Origin: Escherichia phage vB_EcoM-G3F7
Direction: 5' to 3' (one strand)
Sequence record: MZ234035.1
Length of the DNA: 64,000 nt
Shown: positions 19,922 to 23,832 of the stretch, piece by piece
How the letters are laid out: the number at the start of each line of letters is the position of its first letter
Numbering within the stretch: position 1 is the stretch's first letter
The notes under the pieces: model-generated
What the model was told of the DNA's origin: nothing
Database searches by the model: none
The model's input: the letters and a program-made list of their open reading frames with translations, nothing else
Translations under genes and position numbers: made by a program

Positions 19922-20860
19922 ATGTACAATATTAAATGCCTGACCAAAAACGAACAAGCTGAAATTGTTAAACTGTATTCAAGTGGTAATTACACCCAGC
20001 AGGAATTGGCTGATTGGCAAGGTGTATCGGTTGACACAATCCGTCGTGTTTTGAAAAATGCTGAAGAAGCAGAACGCTCTAAAGTTACTATTAGCGGTGA
20101 CATTACAGTTAAAGTTAATAGCGATGCAGTTATTGCTCCAGTTGCTAAATCTGACATTATTTGGAATGCATCTAAAAAATTCATTTCAATTACTGTTGAC
20201 GGTGTAACTTATAACGCAACTCCTAATACTCATTCAAACTTCCAGGAAATTCTTAATCTGCTTGTAGCGGATAAGTTGGAAGAAGCGGCACAAAAAATTA
20301 ATGTTCGTCGCGCTGTTGAAAAATATATTTCCGGCGATGTTCGAATTGAAGGTGGAAGCTTATTCTATCAAAATATTGAATTGCGGTCTGGTTTGGTTGA
20401 TCGTATTCTTGATTCGATGGAAAAAGGCGAAAACTTTGAATTTTATTTTCCGTTCTTGAAAAATCTGCTGGAAAACCCAAGCCAGAAAGCGGTATCTCGA
20501 CTCTTTGATTTCTTGGTAGCAAACGATATTGAAATTACAGAAGATGGTTACTTCTATGCTTGGAAAGTAGTTCGTAGCAATTACTTTGATTGTCACTCAA
20601 ACACTTTTGATAACAGTCCTGGTAAAGTAGTTAAAATGCCGCGTACTCGTGTGAATGACGATGATACGCAAACTTGTTCCCGCGGTTTGCATGTATGTTC
20701 TAAATCTTATATTCGTCACTTTGGCAGTTCAACCAGCCGAGTCGTAAAAGTTAAAGTACATCCGCGTGATGTAGTATCAATTCCGATTGATTACAACGAT
20801 GCTAAAATGCGTACCTGCCAATACGAAGTAGTTGAAGACGTTACTGAACAATTTAAATAA
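19922..20860 (+). CDS. rIIB: rIIB protein
   Basis: 312 aa MYNIKCLTKNEQAEIVKLYSSGNYTQQELADWQGVS...; matches T4 rIIB as recalled. Confidence 0.93.
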   Translation: MYNIKCLTKNEQAEIVKLYSSGNYTQQELADWQGVSVDTIRRVLKNAEEAERSKVTISGDITVKVNSDAVIAPVAKSDIIWNASKKFISITVDGVTYNATPNTHSNFQEILNLLVADKLEEAAQKINVRRAVEKYISGDVRIEGGSLFYQNIELRSGLVDRILDSMEKGENFEFYFPFLKNLLENPSQKAVSRLFDFLVANDIEITEDGYFYAWKVVRSNYFDCHSNTFDNSPGKVVKMPRTRVNDDDTQTCSRGLHVCSKSYIRHFGSSTSRVVKVKVHPRDVVSIPIDYNDAKMRTCQYEVVEDVTEQFK

Positions 20861-20888: not shown

Positions 20889-21083
20889 ATGTTAGGTTAT
20901 CAAGCACGAGTAAAAGAAGAATACGATCAATTAATGCTCAAAATTAATGCACTTAGCAATTTTTTAGAAAGCACAAAGTTTCTAACGGTTAGTGCAGTTG
21001 AGCAAGAATTGCTACTTTCGCAGTTTATCTCAATGAAATCTTACGCAGATTGTTTAGAAAAAAGAATTGCACAATTCAAATAA
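20889..21083 (+). CDS. Hypothetical protein (64 aa)
   Basis: Track ORF with ATG, flanked by two GGGCTTCGGCCC hairpins. Confidence 0.5.
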   Translation: MLGYQARVKEEYDQLMLKINALSNFLESTKFLTVSAVEQELLLSQFISMKSYADCLEKRIAQFK

Positions 21084-21146: not shown

Positions 21147-21704
21147 ATGCAGAAAACGAATCCGGGTTTGCAGAGACTATTTCAGATTCCGTCATTTACC
21201 CTATCGAACAGTGACTTGACTAGTGAAATGAAGGTCAAAATTGCTGATACTGCAAGATACTCTTTAAAACAAAACCCGAACCAGGATAAAGCAGAAGTTA
21301 TCGAAAGATGTCGTATCGCTGTGTACGCAGAGTTTTTTGTGGCAGATTGGCTAAGAGGGTATGTTAACAAAGGCCAAGAGGATGTTAATGACCCGTATAC
21401 ATACGCATGGGATGTACTGGCGCATCCAAAATACTGCGGGCTTCGTGTAGAAGTTAAGACACATCAAACTGACTCACGTTGGATTTCGGTAACAACAGGA
21501 TGCAGCGGAGAGTATCCATATGGTTCTGGAATAAATCTAGGGCCCATTCTAAATCATCAAGTCGCTGACTGTATAATTATATTCAACACTAAAGAAATTC
21601 ATCCAGGTGTCATCCAGTACACTCCGAAGTTCATCGGTGACAGAGAAGACCTTCGTAAGGTTGTAAGAAAAAGCAACTACAATGGATGGTATCTTTCCAT
21701 TTAA
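21147..21704 (+). CDS. denB: Endonuclease IV DenB
   Basis: 185 aa, size and synteny (after rIIB) as in T4. Confidence 0.8.
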   Translation: MQKTNPGLQRLFQIPSFTLSNSDLTSEMKVKIADTARYSLKQNPNQDKAEVIERCRIAVYAEFFVADWLRGYVNKGQEDVNDPYTYAWDVLAHPKYCGLRVEVKTHQTDSRWISVTTGCSGEYPYGSGINLGPILNHQVADCIIIFNTKEIHPGVIQYTPKFIGDREDLRKVVRKSNYNGWYLSI

Positions 21705-21720
21705 AAATTTTCACAAAACG

Positions 21721-21750
21721 GTTTACATACCACAAGGACTGTGGTACTAT
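21721..21750 (+). promoter_or_regulatory. T4-type early promoter (member of repeated promoter cassette)
   Basis: GTTTAC 21721-21726, 18-nt spacer, TACTAT 21745-21750. Confidence 0.5.
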
Positions 21751-21777
21751 ACAACTATCAGCTACGGAGGAGTAAAA

Positions 21778-22041
21778 ATGAAATTTAAATTTTATTACGC
21801 TAAACATAAAATTACCGGTGAATTTATTGCATTTACGACTTCAACTACAGATGAAGGAGATATTTTTACTGCAGTATTTTTATCAAAATGGGAATCAGAT
21901 CAACCTTACTTATCATCACGTGAAGATCTCCAACGATTAGTTAATGGAGAATATAATGATTCATGGTCATATTTAGTCCATGATTGTGTTAAAAAGGCAA
22001 TAAAACAAAAACACTTGGAAATCGTTGAGATTGAACTATGA
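21778..22041 (+). CDS. Hypothetical protein (87 aa)
   Basis: Track ORF 21682..22041 runs through the promoter; ATG 21778 follows GGAGG with 7-nt spacer. Confidence 0.5.
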   Translation: MKFKFYYAKHKITGEFIAFTTSTTDEGDIFTAVFLSKWESDQPYLSSREDLQRLVNGEYNDSWSYLVHDCVKKAIKQKHLEIVEIEL

Positions 22042-22120
22042 GTTCATTATGGTGGTGTTTCGTTTGGTTAATTAGTATTCCATTAATTTGTTTAACATTT
22101 ACTTTTGTGATGAGGTTATT

Positions 22121-22219
22121 ATGAAAATTTTGAATTCTGTGCTTATTGCTTGTGCGTGGTGGGTTGCGCAAGTTTCAGCAGTAGTAGTTGGTATTCACAT
22201 TTATTACGAATATTTTTAA
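22121..22219 (+). CDS. Tiny hydrophobic peptide (32 aa)
   Basis: Hand-translated MKILNSVLIACAWWVAQVSAVVVGIHIYYEYF. Confidence 0.3.
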   Translation: MKILNSVLIACAWWVAQVSAVVVGIHIYYEYF

Positions 22220-22284
22220 AAAAGTTGTTTACAAGACTGTTCTTCCGTGGTATTATTACCCTATCAACTACGGAGGAACAGAAA

Positions 22285-22398
22285 ATGAAAAAGATTGTTA
22301 AAGCTATATGGAATGTAGTTATAATACTAATAGTTTTGAGTATATTCCCAATCGTTTTAATGATTGATGTATTAAACGCTTACTTTGGATTTATGTGA
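22285..22398 (+). CDS. Tiny transmembrane peptide (37 aa)
   Basis: Track ORF 22150..22398 N-terminus overlaps a promoter; ATG 22285 follows GGAGG; MKKIVKAIWNVVIILIVLSIFPIVLMIDVLNAYFGFM. Confidence 0.4.
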   Translation: MKKIVKAIWNVVIILIVLSIFPIVLMIDVLNAYFGFM

Positions 22399-22405
22399 GG
22401 AAAAT

Positions 22406-22603
22406 ATGAAGCGTAAACGCAGTGCTTTTACATTTATTGAATGGTTTTTCGATAATATTTTTCCGGCTTTATTCATTTTCATGCTGATTTTTGCTTTAGG
22501 TTCAGTTGTAGTTGGAATCTATTTGATGACAGTAGTCGGAATTGATATTCATCAAAATGGTTTAAAATCCGTAGTTGAAACAATTTGGAACGGTGTAAAA
22601 TGA
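22406..22603 (+). CDS. Small transmembrane protein (65 aa)
   Basis: Track ORF 22385..22603; ATG 22406 follows GAGGAAAA. Confidence 0.4.
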   Translation: MKRKRSAFTFIEWFFDNIFPALFIFMLIFALGSVVVGIYLMTVVGIDIHQNGLKSVVETIWNGVK

Positions 22604-22710
22604 TGAATTTGCTGAGCGGTTGGTTTTATATTCTTATGTTTTACATTGGCGCAAATTTTCCATATTGGATGGGATGGTCAACAACTGCGTTTGGATTTTA
22701 TACTCCTTGA
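22600..22710 (+). CDS. Tiny hydrophobic peptide (36 aa)
   Basis: Hand-translated MMNLLSGWFYILMFYIGANFPYWMGWSTTAFGFYTP; ATGATGA overlap with upstream stop. Confidence 0.3.
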   Translation: MMNLLSGWFYILMFYIGANFPYWMGWSTTAFGFYTP

Positions 22711-22718
22711 GGTGAATT

Positions 22719-22934
22719 ATGAAAATCTTTAAAGATGTAAAAGTTGGTGAAATTTTCTGTTTAGATAACGGTGATCAGTTAATTCGTATTTCACCTCTTA
22801 AGAGCACTAGCGAGAAACCGACAGTTAACGCTACTTTAGCAAACAATAGTAATGAACGTTTCTGTATTGAAAATGATACTGAAACTTATACCGTAGAAGA
22901 GTTTTGGGAATTGAGCGTCGACTGCGACGATTAA
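22719..22934 (+). CDS. Hypothetical protein (71 aa)
   Basis: Track ORF, ATG after GAGGTG. Confidence 0.45.
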   Translation: MKIFKDVKVGEIFCLDNGDQLIRISPLKSTSEKPTVNATLANNSNERFCIENDTETYTVEEFWELSVDCDD

Positions 22935-22994
22935 TTTAATGGCCGTGTGTATTCATGCGGCCTTGGAGTAGAAAATAATTTAGAGGAAATTAAT

Positions 22995-23453
22995 ATGAAA
23001 TACATGACTGTTACTGATCTGAATAATGCAGGCGCTACCGTTATTGGTACAATCAAGAACGGTGAATGGTTTTTGGGAGTTCCACATAAAGATATTTTAT
23101 CTAAACCTGGATTTTACTTTTTAGTAAGTAAATTAGATGGTCGTCCATTTAGTAATCCATGTGTGTCTGCACGATTTTATGTAGGTAATCAGCGTTCTAA
23201 GCAAGGATTTAGTGCGGTTCTAAGTCATATTCGTCAACGTCGGTCTCAGCTTGCGCGTACTATTGCAAATAACAATGTTCCATACACAGTATTTTATCTG
23301 CCTGCTTCTAAGATGAAACCTCTGACTACGGGATTTGGAAAAGGTCAGTTAGCTTTGGCGTTTATTCGTAATCATCATTCTGAGTATCAAACACTTGAAG
23401 AAATGAACCGTATGTTGGCTGATAACTTTAAATTCGTTTTGCAGGCATATTAA
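22995..23453 (+). CDS. ndd: Nucleoid disruption protein Ndd
   Basis: Track ORF 22947..23453; from ATG 22995 the sequence [18 protein letters not shown]... matches T4 Ndd as recalled. Confidence 0.85.
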
Positions 23454-23533
23454 TGAGTAATTTCCACAACGAACATGTGATGCAGTTCTATCGTAATAAT
23501 TTTAAAACTAAAGGCGTCTTCGGACGCCAGTGA
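23453..23533 (+). CDS. stp: Stp peptide (26 aa), activator of the host PrrC anticodon nuclease system
   Basis: Hand-translated [26 protein letters not shown], identical to T4 Stp as I recall it; TAATG overlap with ndd stop; contains GGCGTC-TTCG-GACGCC hairpin. Confidence 0.8.
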
Positions 23534-23540
23534 GGAAAAT

Positions 23541-23699
23541 ATAAATATTGCAAAATTATTAGGAGTTATTTCATTTATTTGTTGGATAGTAGCATGTGTT
23601 TTAACTATCTGTATTGATGTCAGCAGTGTGTTTTCGCAAGCTTTAGCTCAGGGTATGTGTGCATATTTAACATTTGTGTTGTTATCTACTAATGATTAA
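23541..23699 (+). CDS. ac: ac-like small membrane protein ORF without an in-frame AUG at its 5' end
   Basis: 52-codon hydrophobic frame INIAKLLGVISFICWIVACVLTICIDVSS...LSTND after GAGGA; possible AUA/AUU initiation or an inactivated gene; position between stp and 52 as T4 ac. Confidence 0.3.
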   Translation: MNIAKLLGVISFICWIVACVLTICIDVSSVFSQALAQGMCAYLTFVLLSTND

Positions 23700-23832
23700 G
23701 AAAATCTTGGGCTATTCATTAGCCCTTGCTATTTTATTGATAGCATTATATTACGGAATAATGTTCGGATTAATTCAAGTCGTGCTTTTCATTTCTGATG
23801 TTATTATGGCACTACATTCACTAGTATGGTAA
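23692..23832 (+). CDS. Small membrane protein (46 aa)
   Basis: Hand-translated MIKKILGYSLALAILLIALYYGIMFGLIQVVLFISDVIMALHSLVW; ends 4 nt before gene 52. Confidence 0.4.
   Translation: MIKKILGYSLALAILLIALYYGIMFGLIQVVLFISDVIMALHSLVW

Follow-up and report, generated by a model that had tools for sequence, protein, structure and literature searches.

Small, probably early genes between denB and ndd of Escherichia phage vB_EcoM-G3F7: the T-even ndd.6-ndd.1 group and its predicted membrane peptides

Investigating a stretch of 64,000 nucleotides from Escherichia phage vB_EcoM-G3F7 (MZ234035.1; the window, in whose numbering positions are given unless another record is named), we find that five small open reading frames (ORFs) following each other at 22121-22934, between denB (21147-21704) and ndd (22995-23453), correspond by sequence and position to the T-even genes ndd.5 to ndd.1 and belong to an accessory, probably early group extending from ndd.6 to ndd.1. 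The explanation we favour, and consider likely to be correct, is that of accessory early genes making small membrane peptides, which would act on components of the host inner membrane and be of benefit under certain conditions only. As to mechanism, the evidence supports only the generic description of immediate-early, single-span inner-membrane peptides. The ndd.1-ndd.6 set is already known, has been part of the T4 annotation for decades and contains nothing unexpected for a T4 specialist; the finding is an ordinary one, because these ORFs are long-annotated genes of T4 type, dispensable in laboratory hosts.

The window is a T-even genome segment of the genus Tequatrovirus. In a DNA search, positions 21700-23500 proved to be 100% identical to Escherichia phage vB_EcoM-CHD94UKE2 and to have several hundred relatives at 90-97% identity; the region is present in 493 records, and the whole ndd block in approximately 490 of 540 matching records. 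From denB to ndd the gene order is one-to-one, and on the same strand, with that of the annotated T4 and T2 records (GenBank AF158101 and LC348380, respectively), as it is in 13 further genomes. The T4/T2 genes ndd.6, ndd.5, ndd.4, ndd.3, ndd.2a, ndd.2 and ndd.1 are the same genes in the same order, sharing 92-100% amino-acid identity with those of the window as well as their lengths, stop/start overlaps and early promoters. Two differences set this phage apart from the T4 reference: ndd.3 and ndd.2a form one ORF of 65 amino acids (aa), as they do in almost all relatives and in re-sequenced T4, and an 87-aa ORF, which T4 does not have, is located 5' of ndd.6.

All members of the group lie on the + strand. 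The TGA of ndd.6 (22038-22124; 28 aa, hydrophobic, annotated in T4 and T2; PHROG 8851, E = 3e-17) overlaps the ATG of ndd.5 (22121-22219; 32 aa, starting MKILNSV, with one predicted transmembrane segment and a GAGG Shine-Dalgarno sequence; PHROG 5011, E = 4e-26). Further downstream are ndd.4 (22285-22398; 37 aa, N-terminus MKKIVK, one strong predicted transmembrane segment, GGAGG Shine-Dalgarno; PHROG 3098, E = 4e-21), the 65-aa ORF uniting ndd.3 and ndd.2a (22406-22603; PHROG 2401 and Pfam DUF7248, PF23906, E = 6.5e-19), ndd.2 (22600-22710; 36 aa, uncharged and rich in aromatic residues, joined to the 65-aa gene by an ATGA overlap; PHROG 4135, E = 2e-24) and ndd.1 (22719-22934; 71 aa, acidic, predicted to be soluble, GAGGTG Shine-Dalgarno; PHROG 2183, E = 2e-38). 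Each product thereby falls into a PHROG family of its own in the profile search (E = 3e-17 to 2e-38), and each ORF is provided with a Shine-Dalgarno sequence of GAGG/GGAGG type or an ATGA overlap. The sequence-only reading, which had listed five consecutive ORFs of 32-71 codons between denB and ndd, was right about their presence and their place, once the coordinates had been corrected (they have 32, 37, 65, 36 and 71 codons); it did not identify them as the named T4 genes ndd.1-ndd.5 and contained neither ndd.6 nor the 87-aa ORF. The overlapping start/stop arrangement which it described holds for the ATGA at 22600-22603, whereas 7, 8 and 65 nucleotides separate the ORFs at the other internal junctions. 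What it took for a single block is adjacent to ndd, as stated, but would consist of two transcription units, with a predicted early promoter inside the 65-nucleotide gap. The record deposited for this phage leaves ndd.6 unannotated.

The denB-ndd interval was aligned in 16 genomes, comprising this phage, T2, T4, five IMG/VR contigs and eight GenBank phages; as an IMG/VR scan with Ndd gave five loci only, the comparison set was drawn from GenBank phage records. With few exceptions, these genomes keep all frames intact. Polymorphic sites at codon positions 1/2/3 number 1/0/11 in ndd.5 (ratio of nonsynonymous to synonymous polymorphism, pN/pS, 0.05; P = 5e-5), 5/4/24 in the 65-aa ORF (pN/pS 0.10), 5/3/16 in ndd.2 (0.12) and 2/5/21 in ndd.1 (0.09), the excess at third positions being significant for each of these four taken singly (P = 5e-5 to 9e-4); the counts are 4/1/4 for ndd.6 and 3/1/2 for ndd.4. 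Pooling the five hydrophobic ORFs, ndd.6 included, gives 18/9/57 (P about 1e-10). In the annotated frames pN/pS is 0.05-0.17, in contrast to values above 0.8 in the two alternative frames. The earlier suggestion that these are real phage genes is hence substantiated by third-position excess and low pN/pS (0.05-0.12) in four of the five flagged ORFs, and the conservation among T4-like phages which it proposed as a check extends, beyond the alignment, to approximately 490-600 records.

Conservation reaches beyond the genus. A tblastn search with Ndd.4 matched 595 phage records, of which 100 belong to other genera (including Edwardsiella and Enterobacter phages) and are less than 60% identical, and the homologues of Ndd.4 in Dhakavirus and Gaprivervirus have the same length at 58% identity; those of Ndd.1 in the same two genera show 51-53%. 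Directly 3' of the 87-aa homologue, all four distant genomes from Dhakavirus and Gaprivervirus carry an ndd.6-like ORF of 29 aa (39-44% identity), with a TTG start overlapping the upstream stop and a strong AGGAGGTG Shine-Dalgarno; in the four records, at 1887-1976, 1888-1977, 1887-1976 and 1926-2015, it is unannotated throughout. The pair of 87-aa ORF and ndd.6 is common to three genera, yet T4 lacks the 87-aa ORF. ndd.6 was found in 493 and ndd.2 in 518 phage records. ndd.2 starts with tandem ATGs, the first of which is changed to ATA in some genomes and the second in one, with at least one ATG kept in all relatives. The tblastn search with the 32-aa Ndd.5 returned no match, almost certainly owing to the low-complexity filter.

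Could these small ORFs nevertheless be chance frames in AT-rich DNA, conserved through promoters or RNA structure? With 28-37 codons they are very short, mass spectrometry has missed the peptides in T4, and ndd.4 shows no third-position excess and unusually few synonymous differences. However, the excess is strong in ndd.5, the 65-aa ORF and ndd.2, and confined to the annotated frame, pN/pS in the alternative ones exceeding 0.7; length, start and hydrophobic pattern of ndd.4 and ndd.6 are preserved at 58% and approximately 40% identity, respectively, in other genera; start codons and Shine-Dalgarno sequences are maintained; and neither an Rfam family nor a significant RNA fold over ndd.4 was found. 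The third-position excess, the persistence across genera, the intact frames and the retained start codons led us to set this explanation aside; it is already largely refuted, and we regard it as extremely improbable. Judged by their conservation, each of the six small frames is a real gene. The low diversity of ndd.4 is an observation in its own right: 2 of its 37 third positions are variable, compared with 76 of 232 in its neighbours (Fisher P = 3e-4), which suggests an extra constraint at the nucleotide level or a recent recombinational sweep. RNA structure as its cause received no significant support (fold z = -1.16), and an Rfam scan gave a sub-threshold potC match only.

Two strong early promoters of sigma-70 type are predicted on the + strand. 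The first (21721-21750), kept in the 16-genome alignment, has a GTTTACA -35, a TGn, a TACTAT -10 and an A-rich upstream part, and serves the 87-aa ORF, ndd.6 and ndd.5. The second (22227-22256; GTTTACA-N13-GTGGTATTAT) serves ndd.4 through ndd.1; it is the best promoter match of the region (10/12 with TGn), represents an exact early-promoter module, and is the point where similarity to other genera begins at the DNA level. By these two sites, the flagged block would be composed of two early transcription units. Published T4 early promoters, which combine UP, -35, TGn and -10 elements, agree with both sites, as does the TTTACW-N17-TAYWAT pattern published for the pair of T4 and PST. The module GTTTAC-N14-GTGGTAYWAT was counted 14 times in the window, exclusively on the + strand, versus 0.09 expected by chance; these sites, spanning 1152-58628 (for example, 12285, 17464 and 25367), mark the early transcription units of the segment. 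In time-resolved transcriptomics of T4, the RNAs of ndd.1-ndd.6 are all classed as early. Proteomics of T4 detected Ndd.1 alone, as an early protein, and lists the hydrophobic peptides as 'NA'; it should be noted that such short, hydrophobic peptides easily escape detection.

With respect to their properties, Ndd.6, Ndd.5, Ndd.4 and the 65-aa protein reach 2.2-3.1 in 19-residue Kyte-Doolittle windows, and Ndd.2, with a best window of 1.17, has no charged residue at all and consists of aromatic residues to one-third. Five of the six ndd peptides are thus hydrophobic and probably belong to the inner membrane. This fits the claim of the sequence-only reading that four of its five ORFs were hydrophobic, three of them passing those windows and the fourth (36 aa) being uncharged and aromatic-rich, and the transmembrane prediction it had proposed as a check gives, by hydropathy, a segment in these three. 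Because of the basic N-termini of Ndd.4, Ndd.5 and the 65-aa protein (MKKIVK, MK and MKRKRS, respectively), the positive-inside rule predicts a single span with the N-terminus inside and the C-terminus outside. Residues 8-11 of Ndd.5 (22142-22153) read L-I-A-C and resemble a lipobox, such as exclusion lipoproteins of the T5 Llp type possess; the cysteine is invariant in 16 of 16 genomes; only seven residues precede it, usual signal peptides being much longer, and Ndd.5 is probably not a lipoprotein. The labels 'outer membrane' and 'periplasmic', attached to ndd peptides in the T4 annotation, were rejected, as neither a beta-barrel nor a credible cleavable signal peptide could be recognised and the sequences resemble inner-membrane helices. 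Ndd.1 stands apart as a small protein predicted to be soluble, whose gene would be transcribed together with those of the membrane peptides. Its AlphaFold2 model is all-beta and of low confidence (predicted local distance difference test, pLDDT, 64), and a Foldseek comparison with the PDB yielded no structural neighbour (best E = 2.1), hence no hint on its function.

More can be said about the 65-aa protein. The DUF7248 match spans residues 6-63, nearly the full profile, of a family (also PHROG 2401) to which no function is assigned. The protein has an N-terminal KRKR, one long predicted transmembrane helix and an invariant C-terminal motif, NGLKSV..W.G.K; the AlphaFold2 model (pLDDT 81) shows a helix at residues 2-51 and a short one at 53-62. 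Among a few relatives at 41-62% identity, W13, N51, G52, L53, K54, S55, V56, W61, G63 and K65 are invariant, and the Gaprivervirus VR20 homologue retains NGLKSVVDVIWNGAK. Because the C-terminal residues are invariant while the membrane segment drifts, the tail is likely to be an interaction surface. An exhaustive HMMER search among 1.84 billion representative proteins gave seven matches: three other short, family-like proteins with 44-69% identity, two of which were aligned with the protein of the window, three long proteins (820-6,939 aa), which were taken as chance matches, and a fragment of 25 aa. The gp120 of Shigella phage Sf25 is a chimera of 62 aa that arose by an in-frame deletion: its first half comprises residues 1-31 of Ndd.4 and its second half the C-terminal 31 residues of the 65-aa protein, with the conserved tail retained.

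Of 494 phage records, 493 match at least 80% of the length of the 65-aa ORF in a single frame. In the T4 reference AF158101 one G of codon 2 is missing (ATGAA[G]CGT), and therefore the 'ndd.3' of this record (26 aa) is out of frame and its 'ndd.2a' merely the C-terminal 40 aa; two independent re-sequencings of T4 (MT984581, OL964745) contain the intact ORF. The split 'ndd.3/ndd.2a' of the reference should hence be read as one 65-aa membrane protein of the DUF7248 family. A literature search found neither 'ndd.2a' nor 'DUF7248' in the main texts it covered. T2 records among the 493 contain internal stop codons: in the Japanese records LC348380 and AP018813, codon 33 is changed from TCA to TAA (equivalent to 22502-22504 of the window), and in the US record PV648363 codon 45 is changed from GGA to TGA (22538-22540). 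Both nonsense mutations eliminate the invariant C-terminal motif, which suggests that selection on the gene was relaxed, or went against it, in laboratory propagation of T2.

What these peptides might do can be outlined as follows. Within minutes of infection, Ndd.6, Ndd.5, Ndd.4, the 65-aa Ndd.3/2a and Ndd.2 would be synthesised by the host ribosome; these five hydrophobic peptides would insert in the inner membrane, where the 65-aa protein would turn its C-terminal helix (NGLKSVVETIWNGVK), short, invariant and amphipathic, towards the periplasm. Binding and modulation of host inner-membrane components, be it proteins or the machinery of phospholipid synthesis, appears as their most likely action, and the benefit would depend on host or environment, as with the neighbouring small genes rIIB, stp and ac. 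Several points weigh against this proposal. Target and benefit of the peptides we infer only; the topology derives from plain hydropathy and charge rules; the within-genus substitutions in ndd.4 and ndd.6 are too few for a selection test; the five hydrophobic peptides were not detected in T4 proteomics; and no single ndd gene has been assigned a phenotype, none being depleted in T4 in any of five defence conditions or in minimal medium.

The genetic data on T4 speak for dispensability. The deletion saΔ9, which removes 52.1, ac, stp, ndd, ndd.1-ndd.6 and denB, is viable with approximately half of the wild-type yield. In a saturated transposon library of T4, insertions were tolerated at nearly all TA sites of each of ndd.1-ndd.6, all of which are non-essential; in the accessible part of the transposon tables, their log2 fold changes are near 0 with q = 1, and it was other genes that were reported as hits with RexAB, RnlAB, CBASS, DarTG1, DarTG2 and minimal medium. 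Homologues of the ndd genes in Bas37 are likewise unchanged in the two comparisons seen of the supplementary tables. Knock-down of each gene in T4 by CRISPRi-ART (dCas13d) was scored 'Not Fit', meaning no fitness effect. The importance of the present finding is limited in so far as genome-wide screens already list these ORFs as dispensable.

Roles in superinfection exclusion, inhibition of host membrane proteins or anti-defence, which the sequence-only reading had put forward for small membrane peptides of this kind, are plausible in themselves but find neither a link in the profile libraries nor a phenotype in T4. As superinfection-exclusion or anti-defence factors, the peptides would block a second phage or neutralise a membrane-associated defence of the host or of a prophage. 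They are early, predicted to be membrane-directed and non-essential, they are encoded in a variable accessory region adjoining rIIB (which counteracts RexAB), stp and ac, and the loss of the C-terminus of the 65-aa protein, independently in two T2 stocks, is what would be expected of a gene useful on natural hosts only. On the other hand, they match only their own PHROGs, of the categories 'other' or 'unknown', none of them annotated as exclusion or anti-defence, and a single DUF among the Pfam and NCBIfam families; NCBIfam and PADLOC scans gave matches at chance level only (for example, KwaA with E = 0.008 on a transmembrane stretch). Neither the T4 libraries challenged with RexAB, RnlAB, CBASS, DarTG1 and DarTG2 nor the two Bas37 comparisons, as far as those tables were accessible, show a change in these genes. 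The exclusion functions of T4 map to imm and sp, elsewhere in the genome. Imm and Sp are small, early membrane or periplasmic exclusion proteins, non-essential in single infection; the ndd peptides share size, timing, predicted membrane location and dispensability with them, but belong to other PHROG families, and we know of no exclusion phenotype for the ndd region. Altogether, we hold exclusion or anti-defence to be unlikely, though worth bearing in mind.

The only phenotype mapped to the region concerns lipids: saΔ9 loses the T4-induced phospholipid synthesis and the stimulation of phosphatidylglycerol, and the specific phosphatidylglycerol stimulation is also lost in rIIΔDD2, a deletion partly overlapping saΔ9. 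One or more of the peptides might accordingly be the early T4 function that sustains phospholipid synthesis and stimulates that of phosphatidylglycerol via the lipid-synthesis enzymes of the host. Earlier work cited in that literature holds a protein synthesised in the first 5 min after infection responsible for the change, and the authors note several products of the region as predicted membrane proteins. The mapping, however, relies on a 3.4-kb deletion that takes away denB, ndd, stp, ac and 52.1 as well; the effect could be an indirect one, caused for instance by nucleoid disruption or the breakdown of host DNA; the data are of older date, with one study reporting different kinetics; and neither Pfam nor NCBIfam connects the peptides with lipid enzymes. 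As denB, ndd, ac and 52.1 are lost in these deletions as well, we rate the link to phospholipid as rather improbable. The ndd block nevertheless provides a compact set of candidates for a question of the T4 literature, namely which early genes alter host phospholipid synthesis after infection, and the most conserved among them would be Ndd.4 and Ndd.3/2a, the 65-aa protein whose C-terminal helix is invariant. The more specific idea that one or more of the peptides determine the phosphatidylglycerol switch of T4, or else that one of them inhibits a membrane-embedded host function or defence lacking in K-12, seems doubtful to us; if true, it would explain at once the retention in approximately 500 natural isolates, the missing laboratory phenotype and the two breakages in T2.

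Small size and architecture (basic N-terminus, one transmembrane segment, short tail) also resemble those of bacterial type I toxins, and the neighbouring ac is annotated as an acridine-resistance membrane protein. The peptides might hence be membrane-damaging factors of host shut-off, similar to type I toxins or holins, which depolarise or permeabilise the inner membrane early. We consider this very unlikely: no toxin or holin family was found at E <= 1 in Pfam or NCBIfam, where only DUF7248 and chance-level matches appeared; early depolarisation would harm an infection that requires an energised membrane; and knock-down or disruption in T4 has no measurable effect on phage fitness.

Small peptides modulating inner-membrane components, as favoured here, have parallels. 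The bacterial AcrZ, MgtS and KdpF are single-span peptides of 30-65 aa which act by binding larger membrane proteins; the analogy is confined to size and span, with no homology to the phage peptides. Closer by are Ac (51 aa), gp52.1 (46 aa) and Stp (26 aa), likewise tiny, early and non-essential products of the same accessory region between rIIB and gene 52. Ac and gp52.1 are, like the ndd peptides, predicted membrane proteins, yet none of the three shows sequence similarity to them; Ac (acridine response) and Stp (activation of PrrC) differ from the ndd.x peptides in having genetic phenotypes.

The denB-ndd interval as a whole is, by comparison of its sequences, a variable accessory region. 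In the Tequatrovirus alignment the ndd.6-ndd.1 block has a mean pairwise identity of 0.96 versus 0.72 for the mosaic 87-aa ORF (21778-22041, + strand; predicted to be soluble), whose TGA stop overlaps the ATG of ndd.6. At the site of this ORF, T4 has none, T2 and ESh26 have an unrelated ORF of 68 aa, and G28 has both. In Dhakavirus and Gaprivervirus its homologues show approximately 33% identity, each followed by the ndd.6-like ORF, and the interval comprises only some of the peptides, together with other ORFs. In phage PST, ndd.4 and ndd.5 are replaced by other ORFs, which has been attributed in the literature to recombination at early-promoter/stem-loop elements.

Around the group, the + strand carries rIIB (19922-20860) and denB.1 (20889-21083) upstream of denB, and stp (23453-23533), followed by ac and 52.1, between ndd and gene 52 (from 23837). 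At the junction of ndd.1 and ndd, two hairpins (22908-22937 and 22941-22962, + strand; minimum free energy -26.5 kcal/mol, z = -3.07) have no T-run, and their stems are conserved among relatives while the loops vary; they could represent an element acting in attenuation, or in the processing or stability of RNA. For ac (approximately 23541-23701), no coding sequence is given in the deposited record. The start codon of ac (23541-23543) is ATA here and ATG in T4, T2 and nine other relatives, the context being GAGGAAAATATAAATATT in this phage versus ATATGAATATT in the relatives, with the rest of the frame intact.

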